Origin: Patescibacteria group bacterium
GTDB lineage: Bacteria; Patescibacteriota; Microgenomatia; UBA12405
DNA length: 64,000 bases
Assembly: GCA_018902845.1 (NCBI GenBank)
Contig: JAHIPV010000007.1
Location: 6,989 to 70,988 of the forward strand
Direction: 5' to 3'
The notes beneath the pieces were generated by a model, which saw nothing but the letters and a program-made list of their open reading frames with translations, was not told the origin of the DNA and made no database searches. Shown one piece after another: positions 26,322 through 51,507 of the stretch; position 1 is the first letter of the stretch, and the number at the start of each line of letters is the position of its first letter. A program made the position numbers and the translations under genes.

Positions 26322-26398
26322 TGGTGAGTCTGGAAGGACTCGAACCTTCGACCTCATCGATGTCAACGATGCGCTCTAACCAACTGAGCCACAGACTC
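26322..26398 (-). tRNA. tRNA-Val (anticodon GAC), CCA encoded
   Basis: Reverse complement gggtctgtggctcagttggttagagcgcatcgttGACatcgatgaggtcgaaggttcgagtccttccagactcacca folds as canonical cloverleaf. Confidence 0.8.
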
Positions 26399-30992: not shown

Positions 30993-31250
30993 ATGTATGT
31001 ATATGTAATAAAAAACAAAAAAACAGATAAAATATATATTGGCCAAACAAACAATTTAAAAAATAGACTTAAAAGACACAACGGGCATTTAAAAAACAAA
31101 GTAACAAGCTATACTTCGAAAAATAAAGGAGAATGGCAATTAGTATACAAAGAAGAATATGATACTAGAAAAAAAGCTATAAAAAGTGAGAAACAATTAA
31201 AATCTTACCAAGGCAGACAATATATAAAAAGAACAATCATGGGCCGTTAG
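30993..31250 (+). CDS. small GIY-YIG nuclease-domain protein (COG2827-like)
   Basis: YVYVIKNKKTDKIYIGQTNNLKNRLKRHN is a canonical GIY-X10-YIG...R..H motif; 85 aa; stop codon overlaps 5' end of tRNA-Lys. Confidence 0.7.
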   Translation: MYVYVIKNKKTDKIYIGQTNNLKNRLKRHNGHLKNKVTSYTSKNKGEWQLVYKEEYDTRKKAIKSEKQLKSYQGRQYIKRTIMGR

Positions 31251-31316
31251 CTCAGCTGGTAGAGCAATCGCCTCTTAAGCGATCGGTCAGAGGTTCGAAT
31301 CCTCTACGGCCCACCA
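31241..31316 (+). tRNA. tRNA-Lys (anticodon CTT), CCA encoded
   Basis: gggccgttagctcagctggtagagcaatcgcctCTTaagcgatcggtcagaggttcgaatcctctacggcccacca. Confidence 0.85.
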
Positions 31317-37823: not shown

Positions 37824-37900
37824 TGGGTCTGTGGCTCAGTTGGTAGAGCGCTCGGTTTACATCCGAAAGGTCGCAGGTTCGAGTCCTGCCAGACCCACCA
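37824..37900 (+). tRNA. tRNA-Val (anticodon TAC), CCA encoded
   Basis: gggtctgtggctcagttggtagagcgctcggttTACatccgaaaggtcgcaggttcgagtcctgccagacccacca. Confidence 0.8.
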
Positions 37901-46679: not shown

Positions 46680-46847
46680 GATAGAATTGCTGGATTGCTG
46701 GCCCTCACCCTCGGGTGACCACCTTGTGGGTGGCATTTTGGTGGTTAGGACGCCAGGCTTTTCACCCACGGGGTGATCACCCAAAGGGTGGCATCCTAGA
46801 TGTTGTTTTCAAGTATAGTTTATGTGTTGCTTAAAATAATAATTTTA
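46680..46847 (+). repeat. partial tRNA-Glu 5' copy (ggtggttaggacgccaggctttTCAcc) embedded in palindromic hairpins upstream of intact tRNA-Glu
   Basis: ttggtggttaggacgccaggcttttcacc is identical to positions ~12-38 of the downstream tRNA-Glu; flanked by caccctcgggtg / cacccacggggtg palindromes. Confidence 0.6.
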
Positions 46848-46922
46848 GGCCCCATCGTCTAGTGGTTAGGACGCCAGGCTTTCATCCTGGCAACCGGGGT
46901 TCGATTCCCCGTGGGGTCACCA
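46848..46922 (+). tRNA. tRNA-Glu (anticodon TTC), CCA encoded
   Basis: ggccccatcgtctagtggttaggacgccaggctTTCatcctggcaaccggggttcgattccccgtggggtcacca. Confidence 0.85.
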
Positions 46923-48420
46923 GCAGAGAAAAATCGTTTTCGGTTTTCGGAGCGCAGGCCGCGCGCCCGTTCGTGGCCAGCGTAGCATAGGCAAAATTCA
47001 AATTCAAAAAAAGTCGTTTATCCAATAAAGTGAAGTTCGAGCCAATATTTTTTAAGATAGGACGAAGTTCATTTAATGCAGATTTTTTATGCGCGATTTT
47101 ATGCGCTAGAATAGTGCATCTTAAAAATTCTTTTAGAGGTTCGAGCCAACTCGAACCCTTGTGTTGAATTTGTTTGATTTTCTCTTCCAGTTTTTGTTTT
47201 TGCTCAAATAGATTGTTTTGTTTAGTTTGATAAATGCTTTTGTCTAAATTGTCTTCAAGAAAAAGATCAAGCAGTTTAGAAAGTTTTTGATCAATTGCAG
47301 ATAACCGGTTGGTTGCTGTTTTTAATTTTGCTTTTACTTTGCTTTTTTCTTCATCCATCTTTTCTTTAATCCAAGTGTTGATGTATGGTTTCCAGTTTGG
47401 ATGAAGGGAACAGGACTTAATGGTTTGGCGGAGTTGGGATACCAGATTAGTTTGAGAAAGATACTTTTGGGAGCAAACTCCTTTCTTTTTGGTACAGCGA
47501 TAGTAAACATATTTTGCGACACGATTAGTTCCCTTGTAATACTTGATATGTTGTTCGGCTGTAATACCAGCCCCGCACTCACCACAAGTAGCCAAACCAG
47601 TAAAAAAAGCAAAATGAAGCCCCTGTGTCCTTGCTCTGCTTTTTCTTTCCAGTACCTTTTGCACCCGGTCAAAAAGTTTTTTATTGATAAAGCATTGATG
47701 ATTACCTTTGTGTAATTCACCTTTGTAAGTGAGAATACCAATGTAAAATTTATTGCTTAATATTCTTCTGATTTGATTAATGGATACAGGTTGTCCGTTT
47801 CCTTTTGTAATCCCCTGCTCTGCCATAAAAAGAGAAAGTTGAGTAAAAGAATATTTATCTGTTGAAAACAAATGAAATGCTTTAGAAATAATTTTTGATT
47901 TGGTTAAGTCAATTTCTATTGTTTTGTTTTGTCGATTGTTGAGATAACCATAAGGCGCTTTTCCCGGCCACTCTCCCCTTCTGATCTTTTGTCTCATGCC
48001 TCTTTTTACATTTTGACTTAGATTGTCGATGTAATACTTGCTCTGGCTAAAAGCGATGTTGAGCATGAATTTGCCTTGAGGGGTATTTTGAAACCAGAAG
48101 GCAGGAAACTTGAGATCAAGTAATAATTTTCTATCTAAAAGATAGACAATTCGACCACCATCTATGGAATTTCTAGCCAAACGATCGGGATGCCATGACA
48201 GTATTCCATTGGCTGTTCCCTGCTCTATCTTTTCCAGTACTTGATCAAACTTTTCTCTACCCGGTTGTTTGGCTGTTTTAGATTCAGTGACAATATCAAC
48301 AATAGTTAATCTTTCCCGAATGGCAAATTCTTTTAACTCGGCAATCTGACTTTCAATTGACAAAAGCTGCTTGTTCTTTTCGTCTGTTGATTTTCTACAA
48401 TAAACAATATATTTGAGCAT
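46882..48420 (-). CDS. large serine recombinase (resolvase/integrase family)
   Basis: N-terminal resolvase catalytic domain (YCRKSTDEKNKQLLSIESQ ... Ser nucleophile), recombinase domain, Zn-ribbon (CGECGAG...YYRC), coiled coil. The last ~45 codons of the ORF track read through the left TIR and the antisense of tRNA-Glu, so the true stop may be earlier. Confidence 0.8.
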   Translation of the reverse strand: MLKYIVYCRKSTDEKNKQLLSIESQIAELKEFAIRERLTIVDIVTESKTAKQPGREKFDQVLEKIEQGTANGILSWHPDRLARNSIDGGRIVYLLDRKLLLDLKFPAFWFQNTPQGKFMLNIAFSQSKYYIDNLSQNVKRGMRQKIRRGEWPGKAPYGYLNNRQNKTIEIDLTKSKIISKAFHLFSTDKYSFTQLSLFMAEQGITKGNGQPVSINQIRRILSNKFYIGILTYKGELHKGNHQCFINKKLFDRVQKVLERKSRARTQGLHFAFFTGLATCGECGAGITAEQHIKYYKGTNRVAKYVYYRCTKKKGVCSQKYLSQTNLVSQLRQTIKSCSLHPNWKPYINTWIKEKMDEEKSKVKAKLKTATNRLSAIDQKLSKLLDLFLEDNLDKSIYQTKQNNLFEQKQKLEEKIKQIQHKGSSWLEPLKEFLRCTILAHKIAHKKSALNELRPILKNIGSNFTLLDKRLFLNLNFAYATLATNGRAACAPKTENDFSLLVTPRGIEPRLPG

Positions 48421-48576
48421 TAGAATTGATTTTCAAAATTTTTGCGTTTTTCTTTATTGTAGCTGATTAATAAACGACTTTTTTTGAATTTGAATTTTGC
48501 CTATGCTACGCTGGCCGCGAATGGGCGGGCGGCCTGCGCTCCGAAAACCGAAAACGATTTTTCTCTGCTGGTGAGC
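46917..48576. mobile_element. serine-recombinase element bounded by ~103-bp near-perfect terminal inverted repeats, abutting the 3' end of tRNA-Glu
   Basis: 46917-47019 (tcaccagcagagaaaaatcgttttcggttttcggagcgcaggccgc...aaaaaagtcgttt) equals the reverse complement of 48474-48576 with ~4 mismatches; the left outer end is the tRNA-Glu 3' terminus. Confidence 0.7.
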
Positions 48577-48760
48577 GATTTGGAAAAAGTTCGAATCCAC
48601 CTCGGGCGGACAGGCTATTTTTTATGAATTATTAAGCTTCCTCCTTCGCCAAGGCTTCGGAAGGACGAAGTCGCTTGGGGGCGGTGACCGCATCCACCGC
48701 CCCCATAGTTTATCCTGAAATTTCTGAAGGACTCCGCCTACTGCCTTTCAGAAATATTGG
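48571..48760. repeat. left arm of large imperfect inverted repeat (partner 55420-55545) with internal hairpin mini-indels
   Basis: The reverse complement of 48665-48742 is identical to 55421-55497 over ~78 bp. Additional matching blocks (taataattcataaaaaat; cgaactttttccaaatcgctcac) are separated by 23-35-bp palindromic indels. Confidence 0.75.
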
Positions 48761-48803
48761 CTTGAACTTAAAAACGCAAAAATTTTGAATGTCTTATAAT
48801 AAG

Positions 48804-49211
48804 TTATTGGTCGTTTAGTTTTTTTATAATTTTTAAAACAACAGTTTTTAAAGATCGTTTTATTTCGTGTTCCCAAATCCTAATAATTTGCCAATTTGTC
48901 TTTTTATAATGCAAGTTAACTTCTTTATCTCGTTTTTTATTTTGTTCCAGTTTCTTTTTCCAAAAAATTATTTTTGTGGAAGGGGCTCTATAATGCTTGG
49001 GGCATCCATGCCAAAAACAAGAATCTACAAAAATCACTGTTTTATATTTTGCCAAAACCAAGTCGGGGTTCCCAAAGTTTTTTTTGACATTTTTTCTGTA
49101 ACGTATTCCTTTTTTCCAAAGAGCCTTTCTTAAAACAATTTCTATTTGACTGTCTTTCTCTTTAACTTTGGACATTATTTCGCTTCTTTTCTTTTTGGAA
49201 AACTTATCCAT
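48804..49211 (-). CDS. vsr: very-short-patch-repair endonuclease (Vsr)
   Basis: ...FVDSCFWHGCPKHY... Vsr catalytic/Zn motif; 135 aa; adjacent to C5-MTase. Confidence 0.75.
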   Translation of the reverse strand: MDKFSKKKRSEIMSKVKEKDSQIEIVLRKALWKKGIRYRKNVKKNFGNPDLVLAKYKTVIFVDSCFWHGCPKHYRAPSTKIIFWKKKLEQNKKRDKEVNLHYKKTNWQIIRIWEHEIKRSLKTVVLKIIKKLNDQ

Positions 49212-49213
49212 GT

Positions 49214-50299
49214 TTATTTTAAAAATCGTACCTGAAGATTCAATTTGATGAATTGATCTCCATCTTTTTCGTAAACAAAACCGAATCTGTGTCGACCGGT
49301 ACTGGCGGTTTCCAGTTTGGTATTATTGAAAAGATAATTTTGAAATTCGTCTCTGTTGTAAAGATGGTAGCAAACAAGTTCTCCGTTTTCTTTTACGATA
49401 ATATAACCGCCTTTCGCTTTGGTCAATCCGTCCCACTTTCCTTTCGGGGTCATACCAAGAGCAACGGCGCAAAGAAACTGTTTAATTTTATAAGAGAAAT
49501 CATTTTTGGAAAGATCGAATTTTTCTTTAAGAATCATCTTTTTATTCAAATATTCGACCAATTCGGAAACTGTTCTGCCGTTTCCTTGATAAAAAGCTTT
49601 TATGATCTCGGCCATCATTTCAGGAAATGAGGTGTCAATCATTTTCATATTTTTTTGAAATCCCATTTGGTCAGTCTTGTAAAATTCGATGTGCTTGGAT
49701 CCTTTTTCGATCTTGAGAATTCTATCTCTGACTTTTGATGCTCCCTTGATGGTGTTGATTTTGTTTTTATTGACATTTCCATTCGATATTTTGTAAACAA
49801 AATTTGTGGTACCCGAAGCGTTGAGTAAAGTAGAGGGAGAACCAAGCATTGATTTAATACTGAAACCCAAGCGAGGAGTTGTGGGAGAAATGCTGTCATG
49901 GACCATTAAAATCAAGTCTTCTTTTTTGTTGTTTCCCGCTTTTATGCGAGAACAACGTAACGGCTTCATTGTTTCCTCGGCTAAAGAAATTTGGAAAGTA
50001 CGCGAGGACGAGTTTTTCATTTCTTCAAAAATTTTCTTTACTCTTTTTTTAACAAAAGTTTTTTTTACAATTCCCAATCGTTTGTTTTTCTCGTCATAAA
50101 TTTCAATATTGTTTCGGGTTTTGGAAATATCATATATTTTTTTACCGATCTTTGGTTCGTCTCTTATAACCTTCAAGACAATGAAATATTTTTCGGCAAT
50201 TTTTTTAAGATCGGAATCGGCGGCAAACAATTTACCATCCGTCAGTATCTTAAAAAAGGTGTAAAGTTCGCTCCATTCTCCCTTATTTCCCGTCAGCAT
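49214..50299 (-). CDS. type II restriction endonuclease (partner of the C5-MTase; possibly HpaII-like family)
   Basis: Gene position in MTase-REase-Vsr operon, 17-nt overlap with MTase; size 361 aa similar to R.HpaII; family assignment is inference. Confidence 0.45.
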   Translation of the reverse strand: MLTGNKGEWSELYTFFKILTDGKLFAADSDLKKIAEKYFIVLKVIRDEPKIGKKIYDISKTRNNIEIYDEKNKRLGIVKKTFVKKRVKKIFEEMKNSSSRTFQISLAEETMKPLRCSRIKAGNNKKEDLILMVHDSISPTTPRLGFSIKSMLGSPSTLLNASGTTNFVYKISNGNVNKNKINTIKGASKVRDRILKIEKGSKHIEFYKTDQMGFQKNMKMIDTSFPEMMAEIIKAFYQGNGRTVSELVEYLNKKMILKEKFDLSKNDFSYKIKQFLCAVALGMTPKGKWDGLTKAKGGYIIVKENGELVCYHLYNRDEFQNYLFNNTKLETASTGRHRFGFVYEKDGDQFIKLNLQVRFLK

Positions 50300-51236
50300 A
50301 TTTGTTTAGTGAATCAGTAATTTGTTTGGCAACCGCTTTTATGGCATTTACAGCGACCGAATTACCGAGTTGCTTCATCGCTTGAGCTTCTGAAACCGGA
50401 AACTCAAAGTTTTCGGGGAGCCCCATCATTTTTCGGCCTTCTTTCGAGGTTAGCTTTCTTATTTTACCGCTAACATGATAAGAATCCCAATTACGACGAT
50501 CATTTATTCCAGAACCTCTTCCTCCGACCCTAAGAGTGTAACCAATTTTTTTATCGCACTTGTCGCCCCAAACATCAGACATGGTCATGGTCAGTTTGAC
50601 GGGTTTCGGAAACTCAAAAGGAATACTTTTGTCTTTGAAACCGACCATAAAAAGTCTGGCTCTGTGTTGAGGTAAATTGAAATCGGAGGCTCTTACAATT
50701 TTATGAAAAAAAGAATAACCCAAGTCATCTTCCAATGTTTTTTTAATGATTGAGAAGGTTCTTCCATTGTCATGTTTTAACAAGTGGCTTACATTTTCCA
50801 AAAAATACGCTTTCGGTTTTTTCGCTTTTATAATACGAGCGATGTTGTCAAACAGTGTTCCGCGCGGATCGGCGAACCCTTTTTTATATCCGGCATGACT
50901 AAACGGTTGACAGGGAAAACCTGCCGTTAAGATATCAAAATCCGGGATTTGTTTTTCTTTGACTTTTTTTATGTCTCCGGCAAAGTTTCCGTTTGTAAAA
51001 ATTTCAGGATCGATTTTGGAAAAATTTTGTTGATAAGTTTTTCTGGCATGTTTATCCCACTCGCTGACAAAAACACATTTTGCCCCAGCTGAATTGAAAG
51101 CCAAATGAAAACCGCCAATTCCGGCGAACAGGTCGATAAATGTCAGTTGGTTTTTATTTTTTGCGGTCATATTCTTAGAGTTTAAACCAAAATTGTCCAA
51201 CAGTGTCAGTGGCGGTAAACCAAATGCAACATTCAT
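50283..51236 (-). CDS. DNA (cytosine-5)-methyltransferase
   Basis: Motif I DLFAGIGGF, motif IV GFPCQPFS, motif VI ENVSHL, later QLGNSVAV (motif X). Confidence 0.85.
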   Translation of the reverse strand: MNVAFGLPPLTLLDNFGLNSKNMTAKNKNQLTFIDLFAGIGGFHLAFNSAGAKCVFVSEWDKHARKTYQQNFSKIDPEIFTNGNFAGDIKKVKEKQIPDFDILTAGFPCQPFSHAGYKKGFADPRGTLFDNIARIIKAKKPKAYFLENVSHLLKHDNGRTFSIIKKTLEDDLGYSFFHKIVRASDFNLPQHRARLFMVGFKDKSIPFEFPKPVKLTMTMSDVWGDKCDKKIGYTLRVGGRGSGINDRRNWDSYHVSGKIRKLTSKEGRKMMGLPENFEFPVSEAQAMKQLGNSVAVNAIKAVAKQITDSLNKYADGK

Positions 51237-51507
51237 TCAGTTTATTTATTATACTCAAAAAAATAATTTCTTCTCATACCAATCAAGTCGAATCGTTGTG
51301 CTATAATCAGCATAACCCAAAGAAAACCCGAAAGTAAAGACCCAAAAAACATTGTCTTGGGGCGGGTTTGAGTTTTTTGATAAAGTTATAATCCTAAAAA
51401 AATTAAAATCATGGATGTTGCAATAAAATTTAACCTGTTTCGTCATATTGTATTTTTAGTTGGAATTTATATAATTTGGTTGCTATTGATAATGGGTAGT
51501 TTTTTTT

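Follow-up and report, generated by a model that had tools for sequence, protein, structure and literature searches.

Serine integrases are usually pictured as phage enzymes that use a single phage attachment site (attP) and rarely target tRNA genes. The large serine recombinases (LSRs) of phages phiC31, Bxb1, A118/LI, and SPbeta have the domain order resolvase catalytic domain, recombinase domain, zinc ribbon, and act on pseudo-palindromic attP and bacterial (attB) sites that have a dinucleotide at the centre and a distal motif placed 4-5 bp further inward in attB than in attP. These features recur in an 8.6-kb island (46917-55543) beside a tRNA-Glu gene in a 64,000-nucleotide stretch, referred to here as the window, of contig JAHIPV010000007.1 from a Patescibacteria group bacterium (GCA_018902845.1). 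The island has the order tRNA/A, recombinase, A′/B, cargo, B′/Y, in which A and A′ are the arms of one inverted repeat pair, B and B′ those of a second, and Y is unrelated sequence. We consider it moderately probable that this is an LSR island at a tRNA 3′ end with a mirrored attP layout found throughout its family, moving by the mechanism proposed below. Unlike the phage LSRs, the island enzyme has no close relative on a plasmid or phage (identity of at most 28%; PLSDB, INPHARED), its family targets the 3′ ends of tRNA genes of many isotypes, its open reading frame (ORF) crosses attP, and a second, inverted copy of attP is built in; the islands are also small and non-phage, with no directionality factor seen.

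Small chromosomal elements lacking phage functions are moved or excised by the LSRs TnpX and TndX (Tn4451 and Tn5397), CcrAB (SCCmec), and XisF (the fdxN element). The best NCBIfam similarity of the island enzyme is to XisF and CcrB, with scores far below the cut-offs (103 bits against 375 and 97 against 900, respectively), and unlike the island these elements have one directly oriented site per end and do not target tRNA genes. The tyrosine-integrase islands of tRNA genes, P4-type islands and tycheposons, resemble the family described here in inserting at the tRNA 3′ end, restoring the tRNA, accreting in tandem with the newest unit beside the tRNA, and carrying defence-rich cargo. However, their enzymes belong to another superfamily and they are bounded by direct repeats of the 3′ part of the tRNA, whereas the island family shares no more than 2-9 nt and its long repeats are in inverted orientation.

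Three further systems share parts of the mirrored layout. The G segment of phage Mu and the C segment of phage P1 have their crossover at the outer edge of a long repeat that includes coding sequence, beside the gene of the serine recombinase; Gin and Cin are ~190-aa invertases that require an enhancer and Fis, and both orientations are common, in contrast to the 512-aa LSR and single orientation of the island. The yeast 2-micron plasmid (FLP/FRT) resembles the hypothetical excised circle of the island in being split by two long inverted repeats into two unique regions, one holding the recombinase gene, with a site much shorter than the repeat and repeats that evolve in concert, but it is a eukaryotic plasmid with its own origin, a tyrosine recombinase, and free inversion. 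Phage CTX attP(+) has two inverted copies of the attachment site in one element, at a spacing of ~90 nt compared to 1.45 kb in the island, and relies on tyrosine recombinases and single-strand exchange. In the literature searched, of which coverage was incomplete, no paper was found that describes LSR islands targeting tRNA genes and having an inverted attP built in, and an earlier description is possible; a study of genomic islands in Patescibacteria mentions neither recombinases nor tRNAs. This island family of the ultra-small bacteria of the candidate phyla radiation (CPR) is apparently undescribed so far.

Architecture and Attachment Sites of the Island

The tRNA-Glu gene beside the island is intact according to ARAGORN and Rfam, and its final 6 nt, TCACCA, open the left arm of the first inverted repeat pair, IR-A (Table 1). 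A repeat search of the window returned two IR-A arms of 105 nt each, 97% complementary and spaced 1448 nt apart, and their alignment with MAFFT contains exactly three mismatches (102/105), with identity ending abruptly at both sides. These values agree closely with the first-pass annotation, made from the sequence alone, which had described near-perfect inverted repeats of ~103 bp with about four differences around a serine recombinase gene, the left copy starting inside the last 6 nt of tRNA-Glu. Generic dispersed repeats do not explain the arms, since a BLAST search of the 64-kb window found only the two copies, the next-best hits being chance matches of 13-16 nt. The minus strand of the left arm codes for the conserved C-terminal ~35 residues of the recombinase, while the right arm ends 50 nt 5′ of the recombinase ATG. 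No RNA families other than tRNA were detected between 45 and 57 kb of the window (Rfam, E ≤ 1).

The second pair, IR-B, adjoins IR-A and has a 4-nt core, TCAC, in common with it. The proximal arm is identical to the distal arm (read as 55543-55417) in BLAST blocks of 25/25, 18/18, and 78/78, and the sole interruptions of the match are two GC-rich hairpin insertions in the proximal arm (48596-48616 and ~48639-48671) that are missing from the distal arm. On the plus strand, the three junctions read GGGG-TCAC-CAGCAG (tRNA/A), CTGCTG-GTGA-GCGATT (A′/B), and AATCGC-TCAC-AAATGC (B′/Y), and TCAC is the only sequence common to all of them. The tRNA/A junction and the reverse complement of the internal junction are identical for 105 nt rightwards from TCAC, and the internal junction and B′/Y for 128-179 nt leftwards from it. 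This pattern is the signature of a site-specific integrase and suggests that tRNA/A is the left attachment site (attL) and B′/Y the right attachment site (attR), and that an entire attP lies inverted at A′/B; reverse-complemented, this junction becomes B′/A, the attP expected from excision. The repeats that had been described at first pass as terminal inverted repeats (TIRs), more typical of a transposon or invertible element, are accordingly read as two copies of the A arm, one at attL and one in the internal attP, the right arm being half of that site, and the element runs on to 55543.

The earlier proposal of a serine-recombinase element at the 3′ end of tRNA-Glu holds: the protein has LSR domains, the element abuts the 3′ end of an intact tRNA gene, the core recurs at its far end, and a related genome lacks it. 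In this relative (L092; holA 93% identical in amino acids and 87% in nucleotides), found by one metagenome scan, the same tRNA-Glu gene stands without the island, without CCA, and with the end GGGGTC/TCTT. The discriminator A and the CCA of the window gene (46919-46922) thus appear to have been supplied by the island. CCA is encoded by four of the 15 tRNA genes in the window, Val-gac, Lys-ctt, Val-tac, and Glu-ttc; the three other than Glu (26322-26398, 31241-31316, and 37825-37900) might be scars of similar elements.

The Recombinase

The recombinase ORF fills the space between the IR-A arms and, as was noted at first pass, reads through the left arm and the antisense tRNA, into which it runs for 38 nt, its final 11 codons being antisense tRNA. 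Pfam domains were identified for the resolvase catalytic domain (PF00239, E = 2.3e-20, residues 5-151), the recombinase domain (PF07508, E = 3.7e-13), and the zinc ribbon (PF13408, Zn_ribbon_recom, E = 3.4e-7). In an alignment of 31 sequences, R9 and S11 of the Arg-x-Ser nucleophile motif (YCRKSTDEK) and the zinc-ribbon cysteines 279, 282, 309, and 316 are invariant, and a K/E/L-rich stretch lies at approximately residues 330-420, a candidate for the coiled coil that LSRs have within the zinc-ribbon domain. The match to solved structures, including the catalytic domains of PDB entries 3g13 and 3guv, is confined to the catalytic domain. By domain and site criteria the enzyme is classified as an LSR, far from characterised members, and is predicted to catalyse attP x attB recombination. 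Of the classes raised at first pass, domain and profile comparison speaks for an LSR and against both an IS607-like enzyme, as model NF033518 scores 36.4 bits against a cut-off of 110 bits and matches the catalytic domain only, and a Hin/Gin-type invertase, as the protein is a 512-aa LSR present in one orientation in 63 loci and all strain contigs.

A single relative was found in IMG/VR, located at a contig end, and a tblastn search of the window with the recombinase found no further remnant. In NCBI assemblies of the same organism (L001/L096, GCA_018898085.1; L002, GCA_018896095.1) the DNA matches the window at 100% identity and the 512-aa ORF is intact, yet the only annotation of the gene is a 293-aa 'zinc beta ribbon domain-containing protein'; this annotation is an artefact that hides the gene.

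A Family of Mirrored Islands

Homologues of the recombinase number in the thousands (~510 aa, 52-62% identity), with Patescibacteria as the named hosts. A scan of one genome per species identified 597 loci, 80 of which were retrieved for analysis. All 31 aligned proteins end in ...LVTPxG(I/F/L)EP..., the antisense translation of a tRNA T-arm, and the antisense tRNA overlaps the recombinase 3′ end in most loci with sufficient sequence. IR-A is at least 60 nt long in 55 of 59 evaluable loci (median 103 nt, range 65-173 nt), with an identity of at least 95% in 42 loci and 100% in 21; the tRNA and the outer end of the repeat overlap by 3-6 nt, and the distance from the second copy to the ATG downstream of it is 18-146 nt. 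Fifteen isotypes are targeted: Lys, Arg, Tyr, Glu, Gln, Leu, Trp, Val, Pro, Gly, Cys, Ser, Met, Ala, and Asn. IR-B abuts IR-A in 35 loci, with arms of 80-300 nt that are usually 97-100% identical, enclosing 0.7-7.4 kb of variable cargo in which restriction-modification or other defence genes are frequent. In at least nine loci the first cargo gene encodes a small XRE-type regulator divergent from the recombinase. The mirrored layout is common to a very large LSR family, mostly of Patescibacteria, at the 3′ ends of many tRNA genes. Members with the full architecture also occur outside CPR bins, in Ignavibacteriota (L046, on a 1.8-Mb contig) and Syntrophaceae (L064), reflecting either horizontal spread or binning error.

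The orientation of the islands is fixed, the recombinase 3′ end always facing the tRNA. ARAGORN detected an antisense tRNA at the 3′ arm in 43 of 63 IR-A loci and a tRNA at the 5′ arm only in none; locus L012 alone has a tRNA at the 5′ arm, and there both arms have one. Eight further contigs of the window strain, found through the exact recombinase, its NCBI-annotated fragment, and Vsr in public assemblies, are all collinear with the window and merely break at repeats, and another family member (P0057) has an identical context in 24 contigs. Neither orientation isomers nor circle junctions were present in the eight strain contigs, bearing in mind that assemblies display the majority state. In Logan SRR27456247, a short-k assembly, the cargo unit forms a contig of its own (L097, 6727 nt, corresponding to window 48720-55446) bounded by 30-nt tips of IR-B. 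Many family contigs begin or finish precisely at repeats, as is expected for any repeat longer than the assembler k-mer, and the islands are probably systematically fragmented and under-annotated in metagenome bins.

When all loci are aligned at the outer end of IR-A, the two kinds of half-site can be compared directly. TCGAAC, which is the T-loop on the opposite strand, fills positions 13-18 of the tRNA half. The B half has an A-run at positions 10-15 and TCGAAC at positions 17-22, and thus carries a constant mimic of the T-loop displaced 4 nt outward. In the model of the LI integrase, the motif of the zinc-ribbon domain lies at positions 16-24 in attP and 11-19 in attB, i.e., 5 bp towards the centre (PMC3783163). 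By the parallel between these shifts, B is interpreted as a P-type half-site and the tRNA as a B-type half-site, tRNA-Glu providing the left one with its T-arm and acceptor 3′ strand. Comparison of the sequences alone thus recovers pseudo-palindromic sites, a central dinucleotide, and a motif shift of ~5 bp between attP and attB, as in other LSRs. The half-site pattern also bears on the sequence beyond the outer edge of the IR-A right arm, described at first pass as a degenerate tRNA 3′ end. The T-loop-like motif GTTCGAA is indeed present there, within the proximal arm of IR-B (48589-48595), but it is interpreted as the T-loop mimic of a P-type attP half-site and not as decayed tRNA, given that the outward shift of 4 nt is constant across nearly all of the related loci.

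In 27 loci, attL, attR, and the internal site have 2-18 nt in common, a stretch that always includes tRNA nt 71-72. The predicted crossover dinucleotide in the window is TC at 46917-46918, the last two bases of the acceptor stem. The corresponding dinucleotide is non-palindromic in most loci, which rules out a palindromic one that would permit excision of a single unit.

Concerted Evolution and Short Copies of the Recombinase Gene

Within a locus the identity of the arms is 98-100%, against 65-93% between related loci. For IR-A, L065 and L078 show 98-100% within and 85% between, and L005 and L006 99-100% within and 78% between; for IR-B, L077 and L080 show 100% within and 79% between, and L005 and L006 100% within and 71% between. 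As this identity persists despite differences of 7-35% between elements, the arms are not relics; they evolve in concert, being either homogenised by gene conversion or regenerated at each move, and recent origin alone is insufficient to explain them. Mismatches in the arms show no G-T wobble bias on either strand (27 vs. 23 for IR-A, 30 vs. 17 for IR-B) and ~43% are transversions, giving no support to selection for single-strand pairing of the arms.

Short inverted copies of recombinase sequence, mostly perfect, lie just inside both B arms in ~25 loci, where they follow two variants of one rule: the proximal-arm piece and the distal-arm piece come from adjacent stretches of the recombinase gene that are separated by 16-20 nt. 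Three pieces were located in the window (a1, a2, and a4; Table 1). Piece a2, from the 5′ leader, contains the motif AAACGCAAAAATTT, which is kept across group-1 loci, and the position of piece a4 is likewise copied in group-1 loci. The order of the pieces is a circular permutation of the inverted recombinase unit with the gene body swapped for cargo, and several derivations by simple deletion or inversion fail without such a permutation. The pieces match the recombinase gene of their own locus, even among recombinases whose nucleotide sequences differ by more than 20%, and they are below the length for ordinary gene conversion. In the predicted RNA fold, a2 and its copy a2′ form a 20-bp stem around the internal attP (z = -4.7). 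The pieces might silence transcripts that read through, act as a promoter or operator in common use, or be fold-back elements. A near-consensus promoter lies upstream of the short pieces in locus L057, with no counterpart in L046 or L070.

Proposed Mechanism of Integration

The sequences themselves show how the junctions are built and conserved, where the half-site motifs lie, that orientation does not vary, and that the arms evolve in concert. In the mechanism that we propose, the LSR would bind the T-loop and acceptor region of the tRNA as an attB half-site and the T-loop mimic, 4 nt further out, as an attP half-site. Strand exchange would take place at tRNA nt 71-72, after which the island would restore the discriminator base and the CCA. 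Insertion by the LSR at this position with repair of the tRNA end is inferred with good support. The role of the internal site is more tentative: we regard it as a plausible, though somewhat doubtful, proposition that it serves as a live, spare attP for which a free tRNA attB is the only partner. Canonical LSRs recombine attP with attB and do not join attP with attL or attR (PMC3783163), and by these rules the internal attP should be inert towards the attL and attR of its own island, which would account for the fixed orientation. With the free attB of any cognate tRNA it may nevertheless react, needing neither prior excision nor a directionality factor, and an excised circle would hold two equivalent attPs.

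Locus L012 (9790-11610) has the form expected of such an event. Here the recombinase unit lies without a B arm between convergent tRNA-Glu genes, in the order tRNA(ttc), A, recombinase, A′, tRNA(ctc); its arms are identical over the inner 53 nt and have diverged over the ~30 nt of the half-site region at the outer end. This appears to be the product of an internal attP and a second tRNA, and the internal attP appears to be reactive. Chains of three abutting inverted-repeat pairs are found in L049 (3563-11416) and L068 (5247-11515). The third segment of L049 encodes a second LSR, 24% identical to the first and with repeats of its own (152 nt, 94%); the gene has its 3′ end towards the adjacent B arm, an arrangement like that of the first recombinase and the tRNA. 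A tandem array is present in L065, and in arrays the newest unit adjoins the tRNA. From these chains and the tandem, accretion of new units beside the tRNA is inferred with good support. Locus L074 could be taken for an unintegrated form, but a single unit of a tandem array beside defence cargo is the better reading.

Several observations weigh against the reading of the locus given here. Neither an empty site in the same strain nor an excised circle was seen, and the empty site is known only from the relative L092, which is 87% identical in nucleotides and differs in its downstream flank. Sequence Y belongs to another defence island (type III restriction enzyme, DUF3800) and is not the native sequence downstream of the tRNA, leaving the exact original attB not reconstructable. 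The smallest cargos contain no directionality factor or other conserved accessory gene, and excision itself is hypothetical. L012 is a single case for which other histories are possible. Two equivalent attPs predict both orientations where one is found, calling for additional selection or an asymmetric mechanism. Finally, the arms are near-identical over 75-300 nt although an LSR site needs ~50 bp, which a spare attP does not require, and the short, perfect inverted recombinase copies inside both B arms are not explained.

Alternative Explanations

The internal attP could instead be mainly regulatory, the recombinase binding 50-150 nt upstream of its own gene and limiting its synthesis or read-through, with the hairpin-rich B arms acting as mirror-image insulators and a2/a2′ as a fold-back silencer of read-through transcripts or an operator or promoter serving both the recombinase and the leading cargo gene. 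Precedents are Tn3 resolvase at res, fold-back inhibition in IS10, and, reportedly, IntS at the att site of KplE1. This explanation, which we judge rather unlikely, draws on the constant position of the internal site at 18-146 nt upstream of the ATG, the divergent XRE-type repressor gene that opens the cargo of some islands, the terminator-like hairpin in the B arm, and the a2 motif, conserved in group-1 loci and duplicated in inverted form across attP, where the 20-bp a2:a2′ stem closes the predicted leader RNA fold. In L070, moreover, the a2 copy stands 4 nt before the ATG of a cargo ORF, a spacing equal to that of the recombinase. However, the LSR footprint (~±28 bp of the core) is more than 50 nt from the best promoter-like match, and the region has no excess of promoter-like sites (5 vs. 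6.4 expected in shuffles). An operator needs no arms of 100-300 nt with 98-100% identity to attL and attR, the window cargo retains a2′ without an XRE gene, and the inverted copies of coding pieces are unaccounted for.

The first-pass annotation had also considered an invertible element, and both segments could be switches that flip rarely through the recombinase or RecA, so as to alter both the transcription driven by the tRNA promoter and the C-terminal recombinase tail. The geometry allows it, as each segment is bounded by sites of opposite polarity in a layout resembling the Mu G and P1 C segments, and a flip keeps the ORF and swaps only the tail (TPRGIEPRLPG vs. SDLEKVRIHLGRTGYFL). We nevertheless consider such switches improbable, as orientation never varies: no locus has a tRNA solely at the recombinase 5′ side, the short pieces hold their proximal and distal positions in ~25 loci, and the eight strain contigs and 24 contigs of the other member are collinear, although rare flipping would be invisible in assemblies. 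An inversion of this kind would also join attP with attL or attR, which canonical LSRs do not do (PMC3783163).

In a third explanation, the layout is the footprint of a single-stranded fold-back intermediate, and the mirrored architecture the signature of a fold-back mode of site-specific integration in which the repeats are rebuilt at each hop, as long terminal repeats are. Annealing of the two inverted attP copies, or of the internal attP with arms from attL and attR, would produce a single duplex attP; double-strand exchange with the tRNA would give hairpin-ended arms; and replication, then attL x attR resolution, would yield tRNA/A, recombinase, A′/B, cargo, B′/Y, with both arm pairs new. 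Worked through strand by strand, this scheme gives the observed order, the alternating core polarity, and two identical arm pairs, and would account for the concerted evolution of the long arms and for a length far beyond the ~50-bp LSR site. In this scheme the short leader and coding copies would be additional fold-back elements, for example making the recombinase promoter double-stranded. Two inverted attP sites of phage CTX fold in single-stranded DNA into a site for XerCD, a precedent for such folding, and CPR bacteria are thought to depend on DNA uptake, which also fits. We hold both the intermediate and the integration mode to be very improbable: direct evidence of single-stranded forms is absent, arm mismatches have the transversion share and lack of wobble bias given above, IR-A and IR-B of one locus may diverge differently, and the fixed orientation demands strand-specific DNA. 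A hairpin-ended chromosome and an excision-type step are required as well, with no factor for the latter seen, and we know of no serine recombinase that acts via fold-back. If true, fold-back would be an integration mode new for serine recombinases and suited to the uptake of single-stranded DNA.

The least credible alternative, a 1.66-kb transposon (46917-48574) resembling an insertion sequence, with 105-bp TIRs and the cargo as a separate non-autonomous unit of the same enzyme, can draw on the near-perfect repeats of each unit with recombinase half-site motifs at their tips, the occurrence of units in chains (L049, L068) and varied neighbourhoods (L074, L012), recombinase pieces in the cargo unit in the same circular order, as in a deletion derivative of an autonomous element, and an identity that differs between IR-A and IR-B in some loci (e.g., 78% vs. 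98% in L010), but it is set aside because conservative serine recombination cannot excise or insert a single unit whose cores have opposite polarity (TCAC...GTGA) and a mostly non-palindromic dinucleotide, the arm tips lack a target-site duplication, the window has just two copies of the arm, the end of IR-B coincides exactly with the IR-A core in 35 loci, as fits one composite element, and the IS607 model scores 36 bits against its 110-bit cut-off. To our knowledge, no serine transposases with long terminal inverted repeats have been described.

Cargo and Flanking DNA

The cargo of the window island comprises a restriction-modification cluster, encoding Vsr, an HpaII restriction endonuclease, and a C5 cytosine methyltransferase, and a 970-aa protein with an overlapping 287-aa ORF (Table 1); the latter two proteins have no match in NCBIfam or PADLOC. 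The DNA directly beyond attR (55795-59166) codes for a DUF3800 protein and for a type III restriction enzyme (PADLOC REase_III, E = 3e-174), and the tRNA-Glu locus looks like an insertion hotspot.

Upstream of tRNA-Glu, a 144-nt segment (46700-46843) is missing in the relative L092, in which the tRNA adjoins the equivalent of 46699. The segment contains an exact 21-nt copy of the D-arm and anticodon-stem region of the tRNA (46741-46761 = 46862-46882) and two similar 24-nt hairpin units (46713-46736 and 46771-46794), and may be a small insertion or the scar of an earlier tRNA-directed event. Its motif ctcaccctcgggtgacc resembles the hairpin-like insertion tccacctcgggcgg in the proximal arm of IR-B, which suggests that small hairpin elements may be spreading in this genome.

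Table 1. Positions of the island, its sites and repeats, and its genes in the window.
Feature	Position	Strand	Evidence or remark
tRNA-Glu(ttc)	46848..46922	+	ARAGORN; Rfam tRNA 64.4 bits
Large serine recombinase, 512 aa	46882..48420	-	ORF list; PF00239, PF07508, PF13408
Putative attL core TCAC	46917..46920	+	Only sequence common to the three junctions
IR-A left arm (A)	46917..47021	no strand	Putative P′-type arm at attL; MAFFT and repeat search
Piece a1, KNIGSNF codons	47033..47055		Inverted copy at 48747-48769 (20/23)
Piece a4, recombinase codons ~440-447	47078..47101		Inverted copy at 55392-55415, just inside the distal arm (24/24)
Piece a2, recombinase 5′ leader, 11-30 nt upstream of ATG	48432..48451		Inverted copy at 48770-48789 (20/20)
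IR-A right arm (A′)	48470..48574	no strand	Putative P′-type arm of the internal inverted attP
Putative complete internal attP	48540..48605	-	Inverted relative to attL and attR; core GTGA at 48571-48574; both half-sites of P-type pattern
IR-B proximal arm (B)	48571..48749	no strand	Putative P-type arm; BLAST and alignment
Vsr	48804-49211	-	Pfam E = 1e-28
HpaII restriction endonuclease	49214-50299	-	Pfam E = 4.5e-109
C5 cytosine methyltransferase	50283-51236	-	Pfam E = 5e-83
970-aa protein and overlapping 287-aa ORF	51508..55243	+	Weak HEAT-repeat match for the 970-aa protein
IR-B distal arm (B′)	55417..55543	no strand	Putative P-type arm at attR; BLAST and alignment
Putative attR core TCAC	55540-55543		Unrelated sequence Y from 55544

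Significance

With 597 loci, thousands of proteins, and at least 15 tRNA isotypes as targets, apparently through reading of the T-loop, this family widens the picture of serine integrases. The half-site rules, with the T-loop at +13 against its mimic at +17 and the crossover at nt 71-72, form a natural test of the model of attP and attB recognition, and the family is a possible source of integrases with predictable, near-universal targets. The islands carry restriction-modification and other defence genes. If the internal attP is live, they could spread without a directionality factor and could rearrange the small genomes of CPR bacteria between tRNA genes, a product of which L012 looks to be.

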